From positions 1 to 55,007 of IMG/VR virus record IMGVR_UViG_3300037153_000557: a stretch of 55,007 bases of DNA. One strand, 5' to 3'. Each line of letters starts with the position of its first letter. The stretch's first letter is position 1. The translations under genes were made by a program, and so were the position numbers. The stretch comes from a virus (taxonomy: Duplodnaviria > Caudoviricetes). Of this stretch, positions 12,789 through 50,305 are shown in pieces. The notes under the pieces are model-generated. The model worked only from the letters and a program-made list of their open reading frames with translations. It was not told the DNA's origin and did no database searches.

Positions 12789-13292
12789 TTGAGCGGCTTT
12801 GGTAGTACGCCAACGACAACGACAGAATCGCCTTTATCTGCTAATCAGGTTTTTATTGGCAGTGTGGCTACTCCTGACACGCCTAATGGGGACTTGACAG
12901 CATTAGAAGGTGGTCCTATATCTACTGACTCTAATGGCAACAAGACCGCACCTGCTTCGCTGTATATCAAGGATGGCAACGATGTCACACAAGGCGCAAA
13001 AGCTGATACAGCTAGCACAGATGCGACAACAGCTAACACCAAGATGTCCTTTCTCAAAGGGCTCGTTAAAATTTTTGCTGACATCTGGGATAGCACCAAC
13101 CATCGAATACATGTGGATGGATCGGGAGTCACACAGCCTGTAAGCGGCTCGGTATCAGTCAACACGATCTCGAATTATGCTACTCAGTCAGCAAATCCAG
13201 GCACAGCTATCTTTGATGTATGTGTCGAGATCACCATAGGATCGGAGGTGTATGATCCACAACCAAGCCGAATACAAATTAGGAAGATTTAA
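12789..13292 (+). CDS. virion-associated / fibre-like protein, possibly truncated
   Basis: RBS AAGGAGG, TTG start; Thr/Ser-rich with a VDGSGVTQPVSG unit. Confidence 0.5.
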   Translation: MSGFGSTPTTTTESPLSANQVFIGSVATPDTPNGDLTALEGGPISTDSNGNKTAPASLYIKDGNDVTQGAKADTASTDATTANTKMSFLKGLVKIFADIWDSTNHRIHVDGSGVTQPVSGSVSVNTISNYATQSANPGTAIFDVCVEITIGSEVYDPQPSRIQIRKI

Positions 13293-13302
13293 GGAGGTTT
13301 CA

Positions 13303-14256
13303 ATGGCCCAATTCCCGGGAGCAAAAGACAAATTTGTTGACAGGGATCGTGTCTGGATCAACCAGAATGACCAGGCAACGATCGTCATTCACGGAACGGG
13401 GGGCAATCCCAATCAAACAGCCGATCAACTCGGGGACTACTTTGAGACAACGCCTCTCATGACTTCAGTCCACTACGGAATTGATCGGGCAGGCAATATT
13501 GATCAATATGTCCTTGAGCAAGATGGGTGCGCAGGAGAAGGCATCCTTGACCCTGGCCACGATCCGTTCTGGGATCAATACGCGCCGAATCCCAACTGGC
13601 ACAGTCTTGGAGTCGAAACAGAGAACGACCAGACAAACAGTCTTCCACTCACCGATCCGCAAAAGCAGACGCTGTTCAGATTGGTCAAGCACTGGGTCGA
13701 CAAATACGGCATTCCACTTTCGCACATTAAAGGACATTTTAGCTTAGAACCCGTAGAACGACACAATTGTCCAGGACCTAACTTTCCCTGGCAAGAACTC
13801 TTTGCTTACTTGAATGGAGGAACTATGCAAATACCAACCGGATGGACCGACGATGGAACGACACTCAAAGGACCCAACGGGATACCTGTCGTTCTTGGTT
13901 TCAGAGACCACGTCCTCAACTCAAATTGGGACCCAGCTAACTGGCCTTTGGAACCTGAGAAGCACCTGACTGGCCTAGAGATGAGCAATCCCACACTTGG
14001 TGATGGGCAATCTCAAATCTTCCGATGGAAGCGACTCGAATACACGCCCAAGATGGGCGTCTTTGAGGGCTGGTTAGGGCAGGAATTGCTCTGGTATCAG
14101 CAGGAAGTCAAGCAGCTTGAGACTGAAATAGCTACGCTCACACAACCAGCCCAGCTCTTAGAGCAGCTTAACGGCCTGATCGCGCAAGCTAGTACAGCCA
14201 ATGCTCAAATCGGCTCGGTGCTTACACAGGCTGCTAAGCTTACCACACTGCAATAA
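13303..14256 (+). CDS. endolysin, N-acetylmuramoyl-L-alanine amidase (Amidase_2-like)
   Basis: IVIHGT, SVHYGID, SLGVE, IKGH and CPG zinc-amidase motifs; RBS AAGGAGG. Confidence 0.88.
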   Translation: MAQFPGAKDKFVDRDRVWINQNDQATIVIHGTGGNPNQTADQLGDYFETTPLMTSVHYGIDRAGNIDQYVLEQDGCAGEGILDPGHDPFWDQYAPNPNWHSLGVETENDQTNSLPLTDPQKQTLFRLVKHWVDKYGIPLSHIKGHFSLEPVERHNCPGPNFPWQELFAYLNGGTMQIPTGWTDDGTTLKGPNGIPVVLGFRDHVLNSNWDPANWPLEPEKHLTGLEMSNPTLGDGQSQIFRWKRLEYTPKMGVFEGWLGQELLWYQQEVKQLETEIATLTQPAQLLEQLNGLIAQASTANAQIGSVLTQAAKLTTLQ

Positions 14257-19604: not shown

Positions 19605-20057
19605 CTAGGCTTTATAAATGTGTCTGCCAAGCACTTGGCTAGCAACCTCATAGGCCTTGTTGATCTTGGCCATCTTCTCATTATTACCGCCCGCGTCTGG
19701 ATGATGCATCTTGGCAAGTTTGCGGTAAGCCTCTTTGAGCTTCTCATTTGTCAGACCGTGAGCAGACAAGCCAAGCACCTGCAAGGCCTCTTGCTCGCGC
19801 AATGGTGTGCAGGCAGGCGAGACACCTGCCTGTTGAAAATTCTGCAGTCTCTCTTCGATCTGTTTTAGTCGCTCTTGCGCCCTAGCTATTTCATCCTCGG
19901 TTGCTGCCATGTCCCGTGTCCGATTAATCGGCCTTTGGAGAATTCTGGTGAGGACCTGAGCCTGTTTCTTTTGGTTTTCATAGCGTTCTTGAAGATATTC
20001 AATCTTGTCAAGAGTGCGACGCTTTTCATTGATCGTGAATTGCAACAGTGCTTCCAT
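19605..20057 (-). CDS. coiled-coil plus C-terminal J-domain (DnaJ-like) protein
   Basis: ALQVLGL..LKEAYRKLAKMHHPD.GG..KMAKINKAYE. Confidence 0.85.
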   Translation of the reverse strand: MEALLQFTINEKRRTLDKIEYLQERYENQKKQAQVLTRILQRPINRTRDMAATEDEIARAQERLKQIEERLQNFQQAGVSPACTPLREQEALQVLGLSAHGLTNEKLKEAYRKLAKMHHPDAGGNNEKMAKINKAYEVASQVLGRHIYKA

Positions 20058-20088
20058 AGGATCACCTCCTTTCGTTTGTTCGCTGGTT

Positions 20089-20376
20089 TTAGTCGTCGTA
20101 AAAATCGAGATCATCGTCACTTATCCCACTAGAGATGAGGACTTCATTTTGCTGATTGGATGCGGATATTTTTGCCATTGGTAACGTGTTTTGCGTGGGA
20201 GATTGGCTTATCTCACCATTAAGAAAGAGCCGTATATACTCATCCGCATAGAAAGCAAGAAGATGACTTTTCGGTACGCCTTTCTGCCTTTCATCCTCTT
20301 GCAATTGCCTCATCAAGCGGCTATCACGATTGATAGCCACTGTGAGGTAAACCCGCTTATCTGTATCCCTTGGCAT
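20089..20376 (-). CDS. ParR-like centromere-binding adaptor
   Basis: Directly downstream of the actin-like gene; N-terminal RHH-like strand RVYLTVAI; acidic C-terminal tail. Confidence 0.6.
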   Translation of the reverse strand: MPRDTDKRVYLTVAINRDSRLMRQLQEDERQKGVPKSHLLAFYADEYIRLFLNGEISQSPTQNTLPMAKISASNQQNEVLISSGISDDDLDFYDD

Positions 20377-20377
20377 A

Positions 20378-21481
20378 TTAAGAAACCTGCTCTTTTGCAT
20401 CCCGATTAAAGAAGTGTAAAGCGAGTCTTGCATAGCCAGCGGCATTGGCGCATTCCGGTCTTATTGGCACCGATAAACGATTAGCAAAAAGTGCTCTTAC
20501 ACTGTCCTCAAAGTAGTAGGCACCCCCGCCGACTAAGAGGACATATTCAGCATCAGAAGCCACGACATCGCTTCTCAAAGAGCTAGCCCAGGACCGTTTA
20601 ATAAAGCCTGAAATTCGTTTGCCAACTTCGCCTAAAGACTTGCTTAAAAGAGCATCGACTCTCATGTGATGAGCCCCAGCATTCCTGACGGTTGCAACAC
20701 TGTTATAATCCTTGGTATCCACAAAACAATTCTGGAGTTTGGCAGCATCGCTCGCAGATAAAGGATAGCGAAACTCTTTCTCAAAAGACTCGGTTAAACT
20801 ATCGATTGCAGACTCAACCCCAATGTCATGAGACTTGCATTGATCTTTAATTGGTGTTTGACCATTCACCATATAGATATCAGTTGTCCGCCCTCCAATA
20901 TCGATAATACCCGCCTTGACTTTCCCTATGGCCCCATGTGCAATATTGGCACCGGAGCCCTCCATGATGACCTTCCTGATGGCGATGTGGGCTATACGCC
21001 TCTCACCATCTAAGACAAACTCGTGATCGCCTTCGAGCGCGTTTTTAATCGCCTCAATATTCTCCTCATTGTGCGTGAGGATAGGTAGACCAGTGACCAC
21101 GATCAACCCATACTCGCGATCTTTGATCAAAGTACCAGACGTTGCCAGTAGCATAGCCAGACTACGAACACTCCAGTAACGAGTGATGTCCCCACGGCTG
21201 GTCAATGTCATAGCATCGGATGATGGGGCCTGTTCGATTGCCAGATCCCCCACGTAAAACTCATTGCCATTGACGGCTATGATGTGAGCAGTGTCGTGGA
21301 CCGCTCCGATTTGACGCAGGTCCCCATTGGTTGACATGGCCTCCAACTCCTCACGTGAGCCCTCATAGAGCGTACTAGGCATGGTGAGCTCACGAAGATT
21401 ACCTGCAATGTAGGTAATTCCACACGTTTTACTATTGCCATAATCATGGCCGTATGGGTAGGTGTTGTAATGGTAATTCAT
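20378..21481 (-). CDS. parM: ParM/StbA-family actin-like partition ATPase
   Basis: DYGNSKT, VVTGLP, EGSGA, IIDIGGRTTD, LLVGGGA, ANAAGY actin-fold motifs. Confidence 0.9.
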   Translation of the reverse strand: MNYHYNTYPYGHDYGNSKTCGITYIAGNLRELTMPSTLYEGSREELEAMSTNGDLRQIGAVHDTAHIIAVNGNEFYVGDLAIEQAPSSDAMTLTSRGDITRYWSVRSLAMLLATSGTLIKDREYGLIVVTGLPILTHNEENIEAIKNALEGDHEFVLDGERRIAHIAIRKVIMEGSGANIAHGAIGKVKAGIIDIGGRTTDIYMVNGQTPIKDQCKSHDIGVESAIDSLTESFEKEFRYPLSASDAAKLQNCFVDTKDYNSVATVRNAGAHHMRVDALLSKSLGEVGKRISGFIKRSWASSLRSDVVASDAEYVLLVGGGAYYFEDSVRALFANRLSVPIRPECANAAGYARLALHFFNRDAKEQVS

Positions 21482-21497
21482 TTAGGTGATTTCCTTT

Positions 21498-21630
21498 CAC
21501 TACTTCTGTACAGTACGAAATTTAACTGTATTGTACAGTTTACTTTCTTACCAACCGCTTGTCAAGTAAAAAGCTACTTTTTTGCTCTCCTTTTGCAAAA
21601 TTGACGGTACAGGTAAGTACTGTATGGTAC
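21498..21630. promoter_or_regulatory. par promoter with parC-like GTAC/CTGTA repeats
   Basis: Minus-strand TTGACA-N17-TAAACT flanked by clustered CTGTACAG, ACTGTATTGTACAGT and GTACAGGTAAGTACTGTATGGTAC. Confidence 0.55.
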
Positions 21631-21637
21631 GGAATTG

Positions 21638-22159
21638 CTACTTTTCATCTCTACGCAATACGCGTGTAAATTTCCAGTAATCAACCTCTATGTGCTCTAC
21701 ACTACCTATGATGTGACTGCTGATCGTCTCTACAGGGTAGTATCCCCAGTTGTAGGGCTTCGCTCGCTTGAGATAAGCAAGAGTAGCATCGTCAATCTTT
21801 GCCTCTACCAAAGCGTCAAATCTTTCCTTGCTAACTCTTGCTTGGAGAAGTGGAACCTCTGTATGCTTAATCAGAGCAAGGACAGTCTCAAGCCCTGCGC
21901 CTCCCTCGCCTCCATGCGTTCCAAATCCATCAGGGATGATAGTGAGCTGAATACGGCTTATCCATCCCCATGCTACAAACAGAACTCCATCATGGTCAGC
22001 TTCAGGATATTCTTGGCAGCATACCAATGTCATCCATTCTGGTTTAAATTGCCCAAGAAGGATAGTCGCCATAGCCTCAACGCAGCTTCTTGTGATTCCA
22101 GGTTCCCCTAGATACTGGGGTAATTGTCCACCATAGTATTCATAATCAAAAAAAGTCAT
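21638..22159 (-). CDS. hypothetical protein
   Basis: 173 aa; GFGTHGGEGGAGL loop. Confidence 0.55.
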   Translation of the reverse strand: MTFFDYEYYGGQLPQYLGEPGITRSCVEAMATILLGQFKPEWMTLVCCQEYPEADHDGVLFVAWGWISRIQLTIIPDGFGTHGGEGGAGLETVLALIKHTEVPLLQARVSKERFDALVEAKIDDATLAYLKRAKPYNWGYYPVETISSHIIGSVEHIEVDYWKFTRVLRRDEK

Positions 22160-22160
22160 T

Positions 22161-23786
22161 TTAAGCCTCCTCTAATTCCATACCCTTACGAGCCATGTTG
22201 CTAATTGATCTCATCACCTGCTCATACTCAAAACCAGCCTCTTGATAGCCTTGTCCCTTGCCTTTCTTGACTCTCCAGACACGCTCTATGATCCCATCTT
22301 TCGTGTTTATCCCAGAGGCCATCGCTTCTAGGACTTGGGATACTCGTAGATTGGCCTGAGAAGCCTCTTCAGGCTGTTCTTCCATCTCCGTTCTATCCAC
22401 ATTCCATCCACGTGGAGAGACCTCTTTGACGGTTACTTTGGAAGGCTCGTTTTTTGCCTTGAGTAAAGCCTTGACATCGTAGTCAGGGGCCTCCACCAAG
22501 TCGGTACATCCCGTAGCCTCTACCACACATTGCCCTTTTTGCTTGCTTTCCCAGTTCGAGTTAAGCAGTTCTGAGCAAACAAAACCAGCAGCCCTGGCCG
22601 CCGTGGGCTTGACTGCAAAGCTCACATTGATCCCAAAGTTGTTGTTAAACGCTTTCAGGTCCTCATCTGCATAATCCACCTGAGCACAAGCCATAAGATG
22701 GATGAATACTTTGAGCCCGCGAATAGCCAGCTCGTTTAAGTCATCGAGCAGCGTTGATCGTGTAGCCCCGTCAAGGTCCCTGTGTTTCTTCAAGCTCAGG
22801 AACTCCTCAATGTAGACCAGGATATGAGGCTGTTGGGCTTGCTCCGATTCTGGTAGGCTATAGCGCCTATCCATCTCATTGCGGATATAGTGCAGATATT
22901 CAGCTACCTGTCTTGGGTTGCGAGCGTGTAACTCAACTTCTTTCCTGCCTACATTCAAGACTGCCAAGTGCTCCATATCCTCAAAGAGTTTGCTCGTTTT
23001 GTTCTCTAGATCAAGCAAAGCAATCACCATCGTGTCGGGATCATGCGTCTTGGTCACCAGATCTATGAGAGCAGCCGCAAAGCAACTCTTGCCCTTCTGA
23101 CTTGATCCGATAATGAGAATATGCGAGCTATCAATATCGACAATCGGGACCCCATTTTGTCTGAGTGAGTTCCCAAAAGGCAACTGAAAACTATTGCGCT
23201 CTACTAGCTTCACCAAGTCCTCTATCTTTGGCTTGCCAGTTTGTCCAGGAGGGAGCAGCCCCATCGTCTCGCTATTGCTCTCGCTCTTCACGCTGTAATG
23301 CATGCTGTGCAAAGCCGGGTGCTCACGCATATTCCCCCTAATGAGTTGCCAACGCCCGGTCAATCCATCCCTTACGACTAAGTTCCCCTGCTCATCCAGA
23401 TGAGAGATATCACTGAGCCGCTTTGCCTCTGCCAACATCCTTTGTGCCTCAGCTTGCTTGATGGCGTTCTCAGCAGCCTTGGATGAGATCTCAACCAGTG
23501 CCGTCTTGTAGTAGGTCCAAGTCGAAAGGCCATATTTCACGCCAGCGCCAATACCAGCAAGAACAACTGCTGGTATGAGTAGTTGAGCTCCGAACCGAAT
23601 CAGTGAGCCCGATGCTGCTACCCAAATTCCCCAATTAGCAAACATGGCAGTCAGGAAGCCAATGAACAGGATCACCGAGATAGATGAGGCAATCACAAAC
23701 GTCACTAGTGATTTCAGGCCGTCTGCTGGTGAAATCTCTCTATCCATTTCAGCTATTTGCACTTCTTGGTTAAATTTTCTTTTCAC
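22161..23786 (-). CDS. membrane-anchored FtsK/SpoIIIE-family ATPase (TraB/TcpA-like)
   Basis: Two N-terminal TMs; Walker A GSSQKGKS; EMDRRY; Walker B ILVYIEE; LAIRG...Q; possible C-terminal wHTH. Confidence 0.8.
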   Translation of the reverse strand: MKRKFNQEVQIAEMDREISPADGLKSLVTFVIASSISVILFIGFLTAMFANWGIWVAASGSLIRFGAQLLIPAVVLAGIGAGVKYGLSTWTYYKTALVEISSKAAENAIKQAEAQRMLAEAKRLSDISHLDEQGNLVVRDGLTGRWQLIRGNMREHPALHSMHYSVKSESNSETMGLLPPGQTGKPKIEDLVKLVERNSFQLPFGNSLRQNGVPIVDIDSSHILIIGSSQKGKSCFAAALIDLVTKTHDPDTMVIALLDLENKTSKLFEDMEHLAVLNVGRKEVELHARNPRQVAEYLHYIRNEMDRRYSLPESEQAQQPHILVYIEEFLSLKKHRDLDGATRSTLLDDLNELAIRGLKVFIHLMACAQVDYADEDLKAFNNNFGINVSFAVKPTAARAAGFVCSELLNSNWESKQKGQCVVEATGCTDLVEAPDYDVKALLKAKNEPSKVTVKEVSPRGWNVDRTEMEEQPEEASQANLRVSQVLEAMASGINTKDGIIERVWRVKKGKGQGYQEAGFEYEQVMRSISNMARKGMELEEA

Positions 23787-32995: not shown

Positions 32996-33222
32996 CTCAC
33001 TACCTCCCAGGGGACTTGATTCGAGGTGGGATTATATGATAATGTGTATAGTATAGACATCAGGTCTACCTTTCTAGTAATAACATACACCTTGTAGTTT
33101 GTTTGGTCACATACTGCTCGGTGTTTTTTGTTAGCTTAGACATCGCATGTATTGCACATGTTCTGTCATCTGTGAAGGTTTGAGCTGACGGGCGTTCGGG
33201 TAAAATGGCCGTCAGCTCGGGC

Positions 33223-33498
33223 CTAGGCTGCCTCCGATACCGAGTCTTGCTCGGTTTCTTTTTTGGCCTCACCTCTAATACTGATCCCGTGAACATTTTG
33301 TAGCGTAAATCTTTTGTCATAAGCAGACGAAAGCGCTATAAGCAGCTTGTTAATGGTACTTCGTATTGCGGGCTTTCCGTCCCTAATTCGTGCGACGGTA
33401 ACTTCGCTGATATTGTGATCCTTGCCAAATTGCCTTAGTGAATAGGGCAAGTTTTCAATCAGCTCTCTTAGTGTATAAATCTCTTTGTCTTCAAGCAT
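33223..33498 (-). CDS. XRE/Cro-like HTH regulator
   Basis: SLRQFGKDHNISEVTVARIRDG. Confidence 0.7.
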   Translation of the reverse strand: MLEDKEIYTLRELIENLPYSLRQFGKDHNISEVTVARIRDGKPAIRSTINKLLIALSSAYDKRFTLQNVHGISIRGEAKKETEQDSVSEAA

Positions 33499-33529
33499 TT
33501 GAGTCTCCTCTCTTTCTTAAGATATTTCA

Positions 33530-33625
33530 ATTCTACATAAAGATAAGCCATCTGTCAACTGATTTCTGCATTTTTAAAAACTCATATAAAAATGTGTTGA
33601 CAGATGGCTTAAGATGTGATATCTT
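33530..33625. promoter_or_regulatory. symmetrical divergent promoters with 16-bp inverted repeat
   Basis: TAAGCCATCTGTCAAC (33544-33559) / GTTGACAGATGGCTTA (33596-33611); each arm contains a -35 TTGACA. Confidence 0.7.
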
Positions 33626-33672
33626 ATAAGTGTCCCAAGGACGAAGAAACAAAACCAAAGGAGACCACACCA

Positions 33673-33966
33673 ATGACTCGCATCCTGGACTTCGGCAAGA
33701 ACAAAGGCAAAGCCCTTCACGACTGTGAAGAGAAATATCTCAAGTGGCTCGTTTCACACGAAAAGGTGCTCGCCAAACGCAATCGCTGGGCTAGCCGAGA
33801 TGCTCGGTTCATCTTAGAGCGCAGAGCAGCACAAGCCGTTGTCACCACAACCGGGAATGCGACATGGAATGAGTGGGAAAAGGTTCTCATCGCGAAACCG
33901 ATCTCCAATGATCTGGGCATGCGTGGTCAATTGAATGGAACAAGAGCGTTTAGCTTAATGCGTTGA
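33673..33966 (+). CDS. DUF3820 / ExoX-C-like small domain protein
   Basis: LDFGKNKGK.L.D...YLKWL motif. Confidence 0.65.
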   Translation: MTRILDFGKNKGKALHDCEEKYLKWLVSHEKVLAKRNRWASRDARFILERRAAQAVVTTTGNATWNEWEKVLIAKPISNDLGMRGQLNGTRAFSLMR

Positions 33967-34259
33967 ACAAAAGAAAGGATAGTAAAATGAGTCAAATGAA
34001 GAATTGTCGAGAGTGTGGGAATACGTGTGTCGGAGATGAAAATCTCTGTAATATCTGTCTTCAAGAGTTCGAAGATGAGTACGAAGATTGGTATGATGGC
34101 TGGCATGAAGAGTGTTGCCAAGACTTCACTCAGAATCGGAAAGAGGAAGAAACAGAAGCAAAGAGAAACAATCCACGGTACTTCGGAAATGCAATTAATC
34201 CCATTCAATGGAATTGGTGGTAAGACGAGAAGAAAGTAAGCAAGGAAGGAGAGACACTT

Positions 34260-34793
34260 ATGAAAAGGCAGACAGCGACACACCACATACAAGCGGCACC
34301 AAAGGTGATCAAAGAGCGTGAGATCCTCGTCTTGAGACGCTACTACATCAAACAGGACTACGCTCCCAAAGGGCTGCACAAAGGTGATGTGGTGTTAGTC
34401 ATTCGCAGCGACAAGGGTGCTGAGTACACGGTGACGTTGCGTAGGAACAAAGCACACTCTTGTACCTGCCCTTCCGTCAAGCCGTGTTACCACATCAAAA
34501 CCATGGTGGGAAAAGAGAATGCGCGGTATGCTACTGAGAAAGCTGTCAAGATGCCTGCTCAAGAAGTTGTCTCTCCAAAGGGTGAAGAAATGGCAGAGGC
34601 CGCCGTCAAAGAGGCTGAAAAGATCGTCACTCCTCAGTTCACCAACCTGTTCAAGAGGCCTAGCAGATGGCTCTCAGAGCAAATTGAGAAGCAAGAGAGC
34701 TATCGTGAGATCAAAGCGCAAGCCCGCGAGATCCGCGAACGTCGTGAATATGCTCCATTGAATGGAAATCGGGCTTTTTCTCTCATGAGATGA
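34260..34793 (+). CDS. SWIM zinc-finger protein
   Basis: YTV..HSCTCPSVKPCYH. Confidence 0.75.
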   Translation: MKRQTATHHIQAAPKVIKEREILVLRRYYIKQDYAPKGLHKGDVVLVIRSDKGAEYTVTLRRNKAHSCTCPSVKPCYHIKTMVGKENARYATEKAVKMPAQEVVSPKGEEMAEAAVKEAEKIVTPQFTNLFKRPSRWLSEQIEKQESYREIKAQAREIRERREYAPLNGNRAFSLMR

Positions 34794-35182
34794 GAGCCCA
34801 AAGAGAAAGGGACAAACAAGATGAAACAGCAAGCCGAACCAAAGATGCCGTGTGAACAGTGCAAAAAACTCATTAAAGTGAGTGAATTGGTCCATTGGCA
34901 CGGATACTATCAAAAGCAAGACCGGACGTATGTCTTGGTCCAAAAAGACGTGTGTTTGAGCTGTCGGAACCGCTTATCCATTCTGATGCCACTGTGAAAA
35001 TGGAGAGGCTGAGAGTCGTCCCGTCCACGATGTGGTTTTTCGCACTCAGGAAAGCGCAAGAGACGGCCTTGCATGGATGAGAGAGACAAACTGCCATCTC
35101 AGAAATCAAAGCCTCAGAAATCGGTGGTAGGAGCTTTCTCGTAGGTTATAGCAATTCGTTATAAAGTGAAAGGACAAAACCG

Positions 35183-35464
35183 ATGGACATTCATGTCAGG
35201 CAATATTGGTATCCCGATGCAAACGGGGTGCCAGCACTCAAGGTGTACAAATTTTTTCGCAAGGTGGGGCCGCGAAAATACGAATTGATCCCCGAGTTGA
35301 TGAGCTACGGCTTTGCGAGCAAAGCACGCGCTGAGAAGCGTGCGAGAGAGGTGGAAGCTGAGTATGCGGCAAAGGAAGCGGCTGAAGCAGCAAAACAAGA
35401 GTTCGTGTGTAGTGGATGTCTCGATGGATGGTGCGATGGGTGCGTGCCGGAGACGGAAATGTAG
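35183..35464 (+). CDS. hypothetical protein
   Basis: RBS GAAAGGA; C-terminal CxxC..CxxC. Confidence 0.5.
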   Translation: MDIHVRQYWYPDANGVPALKVYKFFRKVGPRKYELIPELMSYGFASKARAEKRAREVEAEYAAKEAAEAAKQEFVCSGCLDGWCDGCVPETEM

Positions 35465-35582
35465 TGGGATGGGAAGGCTAGCAGTGAGGAAAGCCTTCCC
35501 AAAGAGCTGGGTGAGAGGCTGCTAGCATGAAACAGCCTCTCAAAAAGAAGTATACAATACTATGACAAGGAGTGTGAACATC

Positions 35583-36416
35583 ATGAGTACCGCATTAATC
35601 AGTTTTAATCAAGAAGAAATCCAGTTAGTCAAGAGTCAGATAGCCCCTGGCGCTAGCGACGGACAGCTAGCACTTTTTATCCAAGTATGCAAACAGACGG
35701 GCCTCAATCCGTTCGCGCGGCAGATCTACGCGGTCTTCAGAAATGAATGGGTGGATGGAAAGAACGAAAAGCGCATGACGATACAAACGAGCATAGACGG
35801 CTATAGATTACTCGCGCAAAGGTCTGGTGAATATGCAGGTCAAGAGGGTCCTTGGTGGTATGACGACCAAAAGAAAGAGTGGGTTGATTTGTGGTTAGAA
35901 GAATACCCACCAGCGGCAGCTAAGGTAGGCGTTATGCGTAAGGGTTTTACGCAACCCATTTATGCTGTAGCAAGTTTCAAGAGCTATGCTGCTCGCAAAA
36001 AAGATGGGACCCTTATGACCATGTGGCAAAAGTTGCCAGAGGTGATGATAGCCAAAGTTAGCGAAAGCTTGGCATTGCGTAGGGCCTTTCCTGCTGAACT
36101 GTCCGGTATCTATACCGATGCAGAGATGGAACAAGCCGACACTTCAGCGCAAACTGTTGCAGTCGCCACACAGGTACGCCCACAAACGGAAGAGGACAAG
36201 AAAAAGGCTCGTCTCAACAACCTCTTCAAAGTCGGCAAGGCCAAGGGCTTGTATGGCAACAAGACCGAGATGGCGGAATACATCTCAGATGCGCTTGAGA
36301 CGGTCATAGAGGCCGATGATCTGATGAGTCTAGAGGATGAACGCTTACTTGTAGTAGAGCAGGCTGTAGAGGCTTCTAGTGGCTTTGCATCGGCAGATCT
36401 GCAACAAGCTTCGTAG
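35583..36416 (+). CDS. bet: phage recombination protein Bet (RecT/Redbeta family)
   Basis: GLNPFARQIY, SIDGYR..AQRSG, W.K.P..MIAK.SE..ALRRAFP..LSGIY..AEM. Confidence 0.9.
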   Translation: MSTALISFNQEEIQLVKSQIAPGASDGQLALFIQVCKQTGLNPFARQIYAVFRNEWVDGKNEKRMTIQTSIDGYRLLAQRSGEYAGQEGPWWYDDQKKEWVDLWLEEYPPAAAKVGVMRKGFTQPIYAVASFKSYAARKKDGTLMTMWQKLPEVMIAKVSESLALRRAFPAELSGIYTDAEMEQADTSAQTVAVATQVRPQTEEDKKKARLNNLFKVGKAKGLYGNKTEMAEYISDALETVIEADDLMSLEDERLLVVEQAVEASSGFASADLQQAS

Positions 36417-36517
36417 CGTGGTGGGGCTTCGGCCCAGAAAAGATGTTCAATCTCGACTCCCCCGCTCGTATCGGGGGAGTGAAACACAAACGGGGCTTCG
36501 GCCAGAAAGGATGAATT

Positions 36518-36679
36518 ATGCCAGCATCAACCAACAGCAAACTGCTCTTTGCTCCTCTTCCTCCGATTGATCCGGTCAAACGCGCTCAAGCCATTCGAGA
36601 GGCACTAGCCAAGAGACGGATCAAGCACACGAAAGAGCTAGACGAGATATTGGCACTGTTAGATCAACTTGTAGCATAA
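36518..36679 (+). CDS. 53-aa hypothetical protein
   Basis: Translated by hand; RBS AGAAAGGA. Confidence 0.5.
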   Translation: MPASTNSKLLFAPLPPIDPVKRAQAIREALAKRRIKHTKELDEILALLDQLVA

Positions 36680-37100
36680 AAGAGTAGAAAGGGATTTACA
36701 CATGGAATGCACACCAATAACTATCACATGGAAGCAGTTCAGACAGCTCAAAGCGGCTGTGCTCATTCAGCACTTCCAACTCGGATTTGAAGAGGTAGGA
36801 AAAGCAATGGTGGCATTGCAGTGTTGGCACTATCGCAAAGAGCGTATCAAGTTAAGAGTACTTACCACATGGTATAAGCGGTAGAAGTGAGGAAACAGAG
36901 CAGTGAGCCAGTGCTGTACGAGCTAAAATCTGACCATTCAAATAGTTGCTCACTGCTCTTGTCCTCAATCATAGACGTACTGTCAACAGACGGGGTTTCA
37001 GCCTCATCTGTTTTTTGTTGTGCTAGGAAAGTAGCCAGATTGGCTACCTTGCGAGTCTCTTCTCGCTGCTATAGTAGGCCGAAACGAAATAAGGCCTGCT

Positions 37101-47610: not shown

Positions 47611-47638
47611 ATACCAGATAATTACCATTATCTTGCTT
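47611..47638. promoter_or_regulatory. dif-like recombination site
   Basis: ATACCAGATAA-TTACCA-TTATCTTGCTT (11-6-11 layout, ATAA-N6-TTAT core). Confidence 0.65.
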
Positions 47639-47656
47639 TCAGAAGGAGGTTTACAA

Positions 47657-48592
47657 ATGGAGCAAGAACTGATATCTGTCTCATCAATTGACTTAGCAGT
47701 AGTAGAAGATGCTACCACCATCAATCTCTGGTTACGCTCGAAAAGAAGTGAGCACACAAAAAAGGCTTATGCAAGGGATATTAAAAGCTTTTATGCCTTT
47801 ATCAAAGTAAAGAGAGAGAAAGAGATAATAGTAGAAAATGTCACCATTAGGAACGTTACTCTAGAGGACATACAGGACTATGCTGAGTACCTAAAAACTG
47901 AACATAAGGAAGTCTCAACACAAGCTCGTAAAATAGCTGCTGTCAAGTCTCTCCTAACTTTTGCTTCTAGGATAAAGTATACTGACTTTAATGTAGGAGC
48001 AGCTCAACAACTGCCAGAAGGAAAAGACAAGCTAGCCCAAAGAATACTCTCTACTAGCCAAGTGCAGAATATTATCTATGAAGCAAGAGATAATAAACGC
48101 AATCATGCCATGCTCTTACTCTTATATGGTAGCGGCATCCGATGTGCTGAGCTATGCGGCCTCCAGTGGGAAGATGTTCAGGAGACTGCTACTGGAGGAC
48201 AGATTACTGTCTTTGGAAAGAGGAGTAAGACGCGTTCTATTCCACTGCATAAAGTTGTTTGGGATGAACTGATTTCTATTCGTCCTCTAGATGCTAAATC
48301 TGAAGACTATGTGTTTCAGTCTCGCAAGCTCACATCACGAAATGAGCAAGAACCTACACGCAAACTTAATGAAGCTCAAGTGTGGAAAATTGTGAAGGGC
48401 TATGCTGAGAAGGCTGGTATCAAGAAAGCATCCACACACTGGTTTCGACATGCTCATGCTACTCATGCCATGGAAAAAGGCGCTCCGCTTCGACTTATTC
48501 AGGAAACGCTAGGACATGCTGATTTGCGTACACCGAGTAGATACCAACATGTCAGGCCTGAATCATCCAGTTCCACCTATCTTGACTTGTGA
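47657..48592 (+). CDS. XerC/D-like tyrosine recombinase
   Basis: SGIR..EL, GKRSK.R, HWFRH..AT, LGH, Y; RBS AAGGAGGT; no arm-binding domain. Confidence 0.92.
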   Translation: MEQELISVSSIDLAVVEDATTINLWLRSKRSEHTKKAYARDIKSFYAFIKVKREKEIIVENVTIRNVTLEDIQDYAEYLKTEHKEVSTQARKIAAVKSLLTFASRIKYTDFNVGAAQQLPEGKDKLAQRILSTSQVQNIIYEARDNKRNHAMLLLLYGSGIRCAELCGLQWEDVQETATGGQITVFGKRSKTRSIPLHKVVWDELISIRPLDAKSEDYVFQSRKLTSRNEQEPTRKLNEAQVWKIVKGYAEKAGIKKASTHWFRHAHATHAMEKGAPLRLIQETLGHADLRTPSRYQHVRPESSSSTYLDL

Positions 48593-48816: not shown

Positions 48817-49101
48817 AACTTTGTTTCTCCAGTCAGGAACCCCATAGCTAAAGCTAGGGGCTTGTGAAGAGGGGGTGATTTCTGCCCATCCAATTTGCAA
48901 GCTCACCTGACCAGACCCAGCCACCAGGAGCAATCCTGACGGGGCTACGTTAGAGACGAATAGATAGGTACCATAGGGTGCGTCCGCCAGCCCGATGCTC
49001 TACGGTCAGTGGTTAAACAGGTGTACAAGGGTTAAGCCAGTGCTGCTGACAGACAAACCGTCTTCTAACTTCGTCGAGGCGAACATCACCTGGGAAACCA
49101 G
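48817..49101 (+). ncRNA. omegaRNA (HEARO-like) with 5' guide from the left flank
   Basis: Recalled hallmark blocks GACCAGAC, GCTACGTT, GGTACC..GGGTGC..GCCAGCCC..GCTCTACG, TAAACAG, CAGTG, GTCGAGGCGAACATCACC; upstream TGnTATCAT. Confidence 0.75.
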
Positions 49102-49627: not shown

Positions 49628-50305
49628 ATGAGTGAAGAGCGTAAACCTTGGGAGCAAAATATTGAAGCTGGCGAACCGGACCTGTGGTATGGACGGTTCG
49701 TCAAATATTTGCGCCTAGGATCGAAACGCTCCGTTAATGCCTTGTATGCCAAAGAAGCCAAGGCCGCGAAAAACAGCGAAAAACAGCGAAATTTAGATGC
49801 TGGCGGGGATTGGTATGACATTGAAAAGGCGTGGAATTGGAAGGAAAGGGCAAGGGCTTATGATGAATGGCAGAGGAAAGAAGAAGATAGAATAATTGCA
49901 GAAGAGAAAGATAAGGTACTCAGGTCAGGATTTGCACTTATGCATAAGCGTATCAAAGAACTAGATAGACAGGCCCGTAAGCTTATACAGATGACTAATG
50001 ACGAGCAAAAGATCTGGGTACCGGAAGTGCGAACAGTTATTATGGGAGAAGATAAGTCACAAACTATTGAAAAGCTCACGTTTAATGCTCCGCTATTTAC
50101 AACTATAGACAAAATATTTGATAGCATTGCTAAGGAAACAGGCGAAAGAGTCAAGAAGAAAGATATCACTATAACTGAAATGCCTGCTAGCGTTTACCAA
50201 GGATTTAATCCTGATGAGGATGGAACTGTAACCGATGGTAACGAAGCCTTACCTAATTCAGAACCACAACAAAATACAGGTAACGAAGGACAACAGGCCG
50301 TATAG
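49628..50305 (+). CDS. terminase small subunit
   Basis: F..YL.LG..RS..W..W.W.ERARAYD; upstream of TerL. Confidence 0.7.
   Translation: MSEERKPWEQNIEAGEPDLWYGRFVKYLRLGSKRSVNALYAKEAKAAKNSEKQRNLDAGGDWYDIEKAWNWKERARAYDEWQRKEEDRIIAEEKDKVLRSGFALMHKRIKELDRQARKLIQMTNDEQKIWVPEVRTVIMGEDKSQTIEKLTFNAPLFTTIDKIFDSIAKETGERVKKKDITITEMPASVYQGFNPDEDGTVTDGNEALPNSEPQQNTGNEGQQAV

Follow-up and report, generated by a model that had tools for sequence, protein, structure and literature searches.

Two unrelated proteins of a soil phage, encoded by open reading frames (ORFs) A and B, end in nearly the same C-terminal peptide, and variants of this peptide also form the C-terminus of the HerA-family ATPase of Ktedonobacteria, the likely hosts. 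Both ORFs lie in the virus record IMGVR_UViG_3300037153_000557, which was analysed over its full length of 55,007 bases (46.8% G+C; hereafter "the window"). Because the phage tail equals the C-terminal tail of a HerA of the host lineage, its reading moves from an unknown tag to mimicry of a host tail, and on balance we lean towards the view that it is a docking peptide that copies the HerA tail and docks where the HerA tail docks. Such mimicry by a lineage-restricted peptide would be a variant, not previously found in print, of a known principle that joins shared docking tails and mimicry of host motifs.

Two early proteins share a C-terminal tail

ORF A (33673-33966, + strand; ATG at 33673, stop at 33964-33966) encodes 97 residues, i.e. 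an N-terminal domain that resembles the ExoX-like_C/DUF3820 type, a variable linker, and the tail. Its C-terminus is DLGMRGQLNGTRAFSLMR (33910-33963, +), with the core LNGTRAFSLMR at 33931-33963 and a score of 22.2 bits against a hidden Markov model (HMM) of the motif. ORF B (34260-34793, +; ATG at 34260, stop at 34791-34793) encodes 177 residues, i.e. a SWIM-like N-terminal domain, a helical basic linker, and the tail. Its C-terminus is RREYAPLNGNRAFSLMR, of which the tail, APLNGNRAFSLMR, is encoded at 34752-34790 (+).

The first-pass annotation of this DNA had reported that the two proteins end in LNGTRAFSLMR and LNGNRAFSLMR and that five of the identical residues are encoded by different codons, and both statements were borne out. 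The last 11 residues are identical at 10 positions, with 21 of 33 identical bases, and the codons differ at R, A, S, L, and R (AGA/CGG, GCG/GCT, AGC/TCT, TTA/CTC, and CGT/AGA). In a BLASTP comparison of the two proteins, residues 85-97 of ORF A and 165-177 of ORF B are the only ones that align (10/13 identical, E 8e-5), and therefore the two have no longer domain in common in the window. In some relatives, members of both families have a helical basic linker of the REIRERRE type before the motif.

For comparison, we estimated how often such a similarity arises by chance. Among the 99 called ORFs of the window, the best pairwise identity of the C-terminal 11-mers was 10, while in 1000 residue shuffles the maximum never exceeded 7 (4 in 312 shuffles, 5 in 622, 6 in 63, and 7 in 3). 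A six-frame scan of the 55,007 bases for LNG.R[AG]F yielded exactly two places.

The N-terminal domains of the two proteins resemble different families. About 50 N-terminal residues of ORF A resemble DUF3820/QSregVF_b (PF12843; E 0.017, 15.4 bits, below the cut-off of 22), and its likeness to PF12843 and PF20600 resides in the stretch FGKxKG...YLxWL (FGKxKG...YLKWL in ORF A). A relative in locus L001 matches PF20600, ExoX-like_C, at 2.2e-8, and the homologue P0114 has a precomputed PF12843 annotation. ORF B resembles the SWIM zinc-finger family PF04434 (E 0.003, 17.5 bits, below the cut-off of 19.6) and contains the CxC...CxH signature; C68, C70, C76, and H78 are invariant among 26 aligned homologues, and a relative in locus L022 reaches 20.8 bits, above the cut-off.

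Conservation and portability of the tail in phage proteins

The fractions of homologues that end in the motif were determined with a regular expression. For ORF A, 61 of 74 homologues end in the motif, two miss the last residue alone, and 11 are without it. For ORF B, the motif ends 37 of 56 homologues, nine have another tail, and the other ten have a near-variant, are truncated, or are without the motif. The tail is thus conserved in both families, and together with the codon differences this conservation agrees with the earlier proposal that selection acts on the peptide and that the similarity is not a DNA repeat. The nine deviating SWIM homologues (P0006, P0007, P0013, P0016, P0020, P0022, P0036, P0040, and P0042) end in a sequence of the type LNGAQ..AGFW..LPSRKAS, which has only the initial L-N-G in common with the motif and may represent a second tail class with a different receptor.

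The linkers between domain and tail vary, and those of the ORF A family take three or more forms. On its upstream side, the consensus reaches to D-[LI]-[GS]-x-[KR]-G-x-L-N in one class and to R-R-x-x-A-P-L-N-G-N in the other. Some tails are extended by two to three residues (KVS, KIA).

The tail is also found on further proteins. An N6_N4 DNA methyltransferase of 346 residues (IMG/VR locus L021; PF01555, 1.9e-20) ends with PPLNGNKAFSLFK, and its gene is located in a replication module with genes for an SNF2 helicase, RusA, a DUF3987 protein, and a primase. A longer tail-bearing SWIM protein of at least 262 residues is encoded in L022 (IMG/VR), and SWIM variants with differing N-terminal domains (P0039, P0050, P0143, and P0151) have the tail as well. 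P0156 has the tail without either N-terminal domain and contains a repeated Cys/Trp module. P0143 is labelled as deriving from a metagenome-assembled genome (MAG) of the archaeon Nitrososphaera; this label is probably a binning artefact, because bacterial lysis genes and links to Ktedonobacteria are present.

A tail profile (A3, A4) was built from ten tails of the window and the loci. Of 5,765 word candidates, 48 matched it at E<=10, and all 21 of the new proteins that were read proved to be DUF3820-like or SWIM-like. Only eight representatives among 1.84 billion were found at E<=0.001, including P0156. Degenerate DNA patterns of the tail matched at no place in 185,579 species genomes and at a handful of places in IMG/VR. 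According to the motif HMM, which was applied to the five whole carrier records, the window and G001 have two carriers apiece, of which one in G001 is weak, while G002, G003, and G004 have a single carrier per record. Six tail strings had no match in the papers searched. These comparisons support the interpretation that the tail is a portable module, combined with N-terminal domains that are not related to each other, and that selection acts on it at the peptide level.

No phage protein is common to all carrier records

The first-pass annotation had listed Bet among the candidate partners. An all-against-all BLASTP comparison (1e-5) of the 428 ORFs of the five carrier records revealed no family that is present in all five, and the widest clusters span three. 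RecT is present in one of the five records, and therefore Bet/RecT is an unlikely partner and was rejected as the common one. A clamp domain was found in none of the five records, and a phage-encoded clamp was likewise rejected. Since no phage protein family is present in all five records, a common receptor, if any, would be host-encoded; we regard a host-encoded receptor as probable.

Variants of the tail form the C-terminus of HerA in Ktedonobacteria

The link to a host lineage was obtained with the endolysin (13252-14256, +), which has an amidase_2 N-terminal domain and a C-terminal domain that recurs in the provirus record G004 and in a protein of the Ktedonobacteraceae MAG G005. The latter was the one confirmed relative of this domain (aligned with G004) in the species genomes, with 45% identity over 150 residues (E 7e-33). 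Because it is common to the provirus and the MAG protein, the domain is probably a host-specific wall-binding domain. On this one match, Ktedonobacteria are the likely hosts of the phage; a further link to this class is provided by prophage-borne carriers in the genome G024.

In G005, the tail profile matched the very end of an ORF of 579 residues, which ends with RRRNEAPLNGNKGFNLMR. The protein is a HerA-family ATPase (PF01935, 1e-39); its best NCBIfam model is HerA NF040819 (2e-60, far below the equivalog cut-off), and the closest solved structures are HerA of Thermococcus kodakarensis (9X1L, 1.7e-50) and of Sulfolobus (4D2I, 4e-34). Among 121 genomes of the class Ktedonobacteria (including G071, which is flagged as unpublished), 57 contain profile matches at E<=1; 35 matches are at the end of an open frame of 572-621 residues, and the shorter frames include several fragments of HerA that are cut off by the end of a contig. 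Alignment of HerA identified 80 loci, all of them in Ktedonobacteria, among these Ktedonobacter racemifer, Dictyobacter, Thermogemmatispora, Thermosporothrix, and Tengunoibacter. The 3′ end of herA is complete in 79 of the 80 loci, and all 79 proteins end in a variant of [ED]APL[NSG][GNS]N[KRQ][GP]F[NSQ]L[LM][RK]. This motif occupies the last 13-14 residues of HerA, after the RecA-like domain, and the strict 13-residue pattern fits 71 of the tails.

This uniformity bears on the proposal that the tail is a turnover or quality-control signal, i.e. a Clp/Lon degron or a chaperone site, which would set the lifetime of HerA and by which phages would make their early proteins short-lived. In its favour, the tail is short and C-terminal, with a hydrophobic core and basic flanks, the carriers are early genes, ORF A being the first behind a promoter-like site, and the phage encodes a J-domain protein. 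However, a degron is hard to rationalise on a conserved core ATPase in 79 of 79 complete genes of a whole class, the polar L-N-G-N is as conserved as the hydrophobic part, the KVS and KIA extensions imply that a free end is not required, and the J-domain protein is not common to the five carrier records. We therefore consider this explanation improbable.

The phage and host tails were compared at both levels. Two Ktedonobacteria genomes (L112 and L103) encode HerA tails that share 11 of 13 residues with the tail of ORF B. With BLASTP, residues 161-177 of ORF B align end to end with residues 563-579 of HerA (12/17 identical, E 1e-5), and residues 87-97 of ORF A align end to end with residues 569-579 (7/11 identical, E 0.013). 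At the DNA level, at most 29 of 39 bases are identical between phage and host tails (74%), with a mean of 60%, compared with up to 11 of 13 residues (85%). The likeness between phage and host tails is thus at the peptide level and not at the DNA level.

It is very improbable that the tail has no present function and is a relic of an exchange of fragments between herA and genes of the phage. A trace of such an exchange might be seen in the SWIM-type tails, whose likeness to HerA includes the basic residues ahead of its motif (RRxxAPLNGN). Against it stand the synonymous codon differences within the window, the gap between 74% DNA identity and 85% residue identity, the conservation of the tail over proteins that are 40-50% identical elsewhere and have variable linkers, and its invariable position at the extreme C-terminus.

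HerA is the only recurrent host carrier found by the profile in the 121 genomes, in a search that is insensitive to very short degenerate cores. Other carriers in host genomes were confined to G024, i.e. small prophage-like proteins, two of them DUF3820-like and one SWIM-like; DUF3820-like carriers are present in this one of 169 genomes of the class. These results are relevant for the main rival explanation, according to which a third-party host hub outside the HerA operon, such as the sliding clamp DnaN, binds the tails of HerA and of the phage proteins, all of which would be associated with the fork or the clamp. A general hub should have many clients, and the profile found no recurrent host carrier beside HerA, although short cores would have escaped the search.

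In favour of a clamp, all carriers handle DNA (methyltransferase, SWIM, ExoX-C-like, HerA), and on contig C301 of G005 a distance of about 8 kb separates herA from dnaN and recF (DnaN at 1489-2649 of L042). None of the five phage records encodes its own clamp, and therefore the host clamp would be used. Bacterial clamp-binding motifs, QL[SD]LF or QLxLxL, are short and often C-terminal, and peptides of this kind occur on many DNA enzymes, including a eukaryotic DNA methyltransferase. The tail shares with them its shortness, its position on DNA enzymes, and a hydrophobic core, x-F-[SN]-L-[LM], that is loosely similar to the clamp-binding consensus. In contrast, the tails lack the leading Gln and have no Gln at any fixed position, [KRQ]-[AGP] precedes the Phe in phage and host tails alike, and the motif exceeds clamp peptides in length and includes a polar half, L-N-G-N, whose conservation is unusual for them. 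Taken together, a hub of this kind appears unlikely.

The DUF8166-HerA operon

In Ktedonobacteria, the genes are arranged in the order DUF8166 (HAS-barrel-like), HerA, and a small membrane protein (loci L077-L156; a further example is L074, 918-3745, -). The operon, in which the third gene encodes a protein with four transmembrane (TM) segments, is near-universal in the class, and HerA and DUF8166 are at least 77% and at least 70% identical across it, respectively. A protein of 231 residues precedes herA in 78 of the 80 loci, and an ORF of at least 100 codons directly follows it in 65. Where this downstream ORF was read (L074, L075, and L188), it is very hydrophobic and has about 121-131 residues. 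No nuclease such as NurA was seen beside the operon.

The upstream 231-residue protein has no match in the Pfam set searched, and the ESM Atlas groups it with DUF8166/HAS-barrel clusters (score 0.97). An AlphaFold2 model of the DUF8166 protein (mean predicted local distance difference test score, pLDDT, 80.8) gave 43 structure matches at E<=0.001, the best of which is the N-terminal part of HerA (9x1l_A, 4.6e-7, query TM-score 0.46). DUF8166 was not mentioned in the papers searched. PADLOC did not assign a partner from a defence system to DUF8166, to the TM protein, or to the phage ORFs, and HerA matched generic HerA models alone.

The combination of DUF8166 and HerA extends beyond Ktedonobacteria. 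DUF8166 is encoded in 68 of 301 sampled Chloroflexota genomes (including G328, flagged as unpublished), and HerA adjoins it in 17 of the 20 regions read. In 14 of these 17 distant HerA proteins, a degenerate tail [IL][FY][RK] is found within the last 3-10 residues (L169-L187; e.g. SIFK, RLYR, and QIFR). Because distant HerA proteins keep tails of this type, the comparison suggests an old C-terminal docking code in the DUF8166-linked HerA subfamily.

The hydrophobic downstream ORF in 65 of the 80 loci, together with the amphipathic and basic character of the tail, could indicate that the tail targets a membrane or a membrane protein, i.e. that it tethers HerA to the 4-TM protein and allows phage proteins to reach the same site. 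However, the distant DUF8166-HerA pairs keep the related tail, and a membrane ORF is absent from the distant DUF8166 regions read, with the exception of the close Ktedonobacteria locus L188. In addition, conserved polar residues are unexpected for a lipid-binding helix, and membrane targeting is thus quite improbable.

A proposed docking peptide that would copy the HerA tail

In the favoured reading, the site into which the HerA tail plugs would most likely belong to the HerA machine, i.e. to the neighbouring protomer or to the HAS-barrel-like DUF8166. Phages of this lineage would put the same plug, via variable linkers, on ExoX-C/DUF3820-like, SWIM, and N6/N4 methyltransferase modules. In this way the modules would be held at the DNA translocase of the host, or would compete with its assembly or with its partner. 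The position of ORF A as the first gene behind a promoter-like site and the lack of a recognisable exonuclease beside RecT would fit the recruitment of an end-processing motor, or else its neutralisation, for which the anti-RecBCD proteins offer an analogy. The presence of the tail on a methyltransferase favours recruitment over neutralisation. The sequences show the motif, its modularity and conservation, its match to the tail of the host HerA, and the absence of a common partner encoded by the phages; from these we infer the binding by the tail, the docking site, and the outcome, i.e. hijack or inhibition.

A more specific version appears possible but rather doubtful. The peptide at the tip of the HerA brace would have been grafted onto early proteins, where it would fill the tail-receiving pockets of the HerA/DUF8166 ring. 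A housekeeping motor would then serve as a carrier for methyltransferase, nuclease-adaptor, and DNA-binding modules of the phage, or a machine for DNA-end processing would be jammed, much as by an anti-RecBCD protein. If this is true, docking in this HerA subfamily follows a C-terminal plug-and-socket code similar to that of proteasomal ATPases.

The closest parallel within the HerA family is the C-terminal brace or protrusion of archaeal HerA, which, according to two reports, embraces the adjacent protomer and stabilises the hexamer mainly by hydrophobic contacts (PMC5715905, PMC12977600). The brace (Sulfolobus 4D2I, Thermococcus 9X1L) is likewise the extreme C-terminus of a homologous hexameric ATPase, whereas the host motif described here lies beyond the aligned region: the tail, at the tip of the C-terminal extension, lies 16 residues past the last residue aligned to 9X1L (query 563 of 579). 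The tail had no match among PDB chains at E<=10. The HerA papers searched, in their accessible parts, contained no case of a brace sequence carried by other proteins or phages.

Among phages, T4 gp43, gp33, and gp55 dock on the gp45 clamp by their C-terminal tails, and T7 gp2.5 and gp4 have acidic tails. As in the favoured reading here, several unrelated proteins of a single phage carry a short peptide at the C-terminus, which one receptor reads. However, that receptor is phage-encoded and the peptide is acidic-hydrophobic, whereas the tail described here is basic-hydrophobic, has no common phage partner, and copies the tail of a host protein.

A further analogy is offered by the HbYX (hydrophobic-Tyr-X) tails, by which the C-termini of hexameric proteasomal ATPases plug into a ring partner and which unrelated activators use to enter the same pockets. 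The [IL][FY][RK] endings of the distant Chloroflexota HerA proteins and the resemblance of DUF8166 to the ring-forming HAS-barrel part at the N-terminus of HerA would be the corresponding features. The ATPases, however, belong to another superfamily branch and the motif is a different one: the tails of Ktedonobacteria and phages end in L-[LM]-[RK], some with two to three additional residues, so that the penultimate residue is Leu or Met and not Tyr, and the hydrophobic-Tyr-X ending is absent. A capsid-loading signal, similar to those of encapsulin cargo proteins, had also been considered and was dropped, since genes of the early or replication modules encode the carriers and, in the host, the tail is found on HerA.

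Several observations weigh against mimicry of the HerA tail. The host assignment consists of one endolysin-domain match and the motif itself. In G024, the one host genome with prophage carriers, the tails are not strictly in step: HerA ends in GFHLMR, the two DUF3820-like proteins in GFSLMR, and the SWIM protein in PFTLLKVS. Two carriers of a single 3.8-kb contig end in RGFSLLKVS and RAFSLMR, respectively, and host tails mostly have F-N-L, phage tails F-S-L. The nine SWIM homologues with LNGAQ-type tails and the 11 tailless ORF A homologues belong here as well. In HerA of Deinococcus radiodurans, the last 14 residues are reported to be disordered and considered by the authors too short, perhaps, for contact with the adjacent protomer (PMC9960219), and therefore the analogy with the brace may fail for HerA of bacteria. 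Furthermore, competition with six tethered cis tails would need a high affinity or access during assembly.

Structure predictions were of little help in this respect. A complex prediction with HerA 1-556, DUF8166, and ORF A 58-97 had a score of 0.00 in both runs, which were made without controls, and it counts neither way. The single-chain AlphaFold2 model of HerA, computed with 39 close sequences, is poor (mean pLDDT 54; 32-36 in the tail).

As the tail has been traced to a specific host protein, the question of its receptor is directly testable with a peptide of 14 residues. The tail also provides a first functional handle on the uncharacterised and highly conserved DUF8166-HerA pair, and a sequence marker for the assignment of uncultured soil phages to Ktedonobacteria hosts. 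If it recruits or blocks HerA, it would represent a new route by which phages take over or disarm a host motor for DNA-end processing or translocation.

The early gene block and other features of the window

ORF A is the first gene behind a sigma-70-like promoter (33597-33625, +; TTGACA, 17 nt, TATCTT with TG), which was assigned from 10 of 12 consensus matches alone. A divergent promoter-like site (33558-33530, -), likewise assigned from consensus matches alone (11 of 12), would serve a leftward repressor-like gene. A Shine-Dalgarno-like AGGAG is present upstream of both ORF A and ORF B. Between them lies a small Cys-rich ORF (33987-34223, +), which lacks the tail and has no family match. The rightward block that starts at 33597-33625 continues into the gene for a RecT-family annealing protein (35562-36416, +; PF03837, 6.2e-34), in agreement with the earlier statement that both carriers are located upstream of bet in one early block. 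In the operon 33673-36416, RecT has no recognisable exonuclease partner, and the intervening ORFs are small and Cys-rich and have no family matches.

Searches with this region yielded few relatives. A phage collection searched with 33000-37000 of the window had no DNA match. In the species-representative genomes, 40 pattern matches for the ORF A family and 133 for RecT included no confirmed relatives, and the exact tail, used as a DNA pattern, did not match at all.

The gene complement of the window comprises head, tail, lysis, integrase, partition, and replication genes; the phage is temperate and has a tyrosine integrase. No transfer-messenger RNA (tmRNA) or tRNA was found in the window. A full-length HEARO RNA (RF02033, 122.4 bits; gathering score 83) is located at 48832-49089 (+), between the integrase gene (47633-48592) and the gene for the small terminase (49628-50305). 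An IscB/HNH-like ORF was not recognised adjoining this RNA. In addition, this temperate phage has a plasmid-like partition set at 19605-23786 (-), which encodes a J-domain protein (19605-20120, -; PF00226, 2.9e-10), a ParM-like actin (20378-21481, -; PF17989/PF21522), and an FtsK/SpoIIIE-like ATPase (22161-23786, -).

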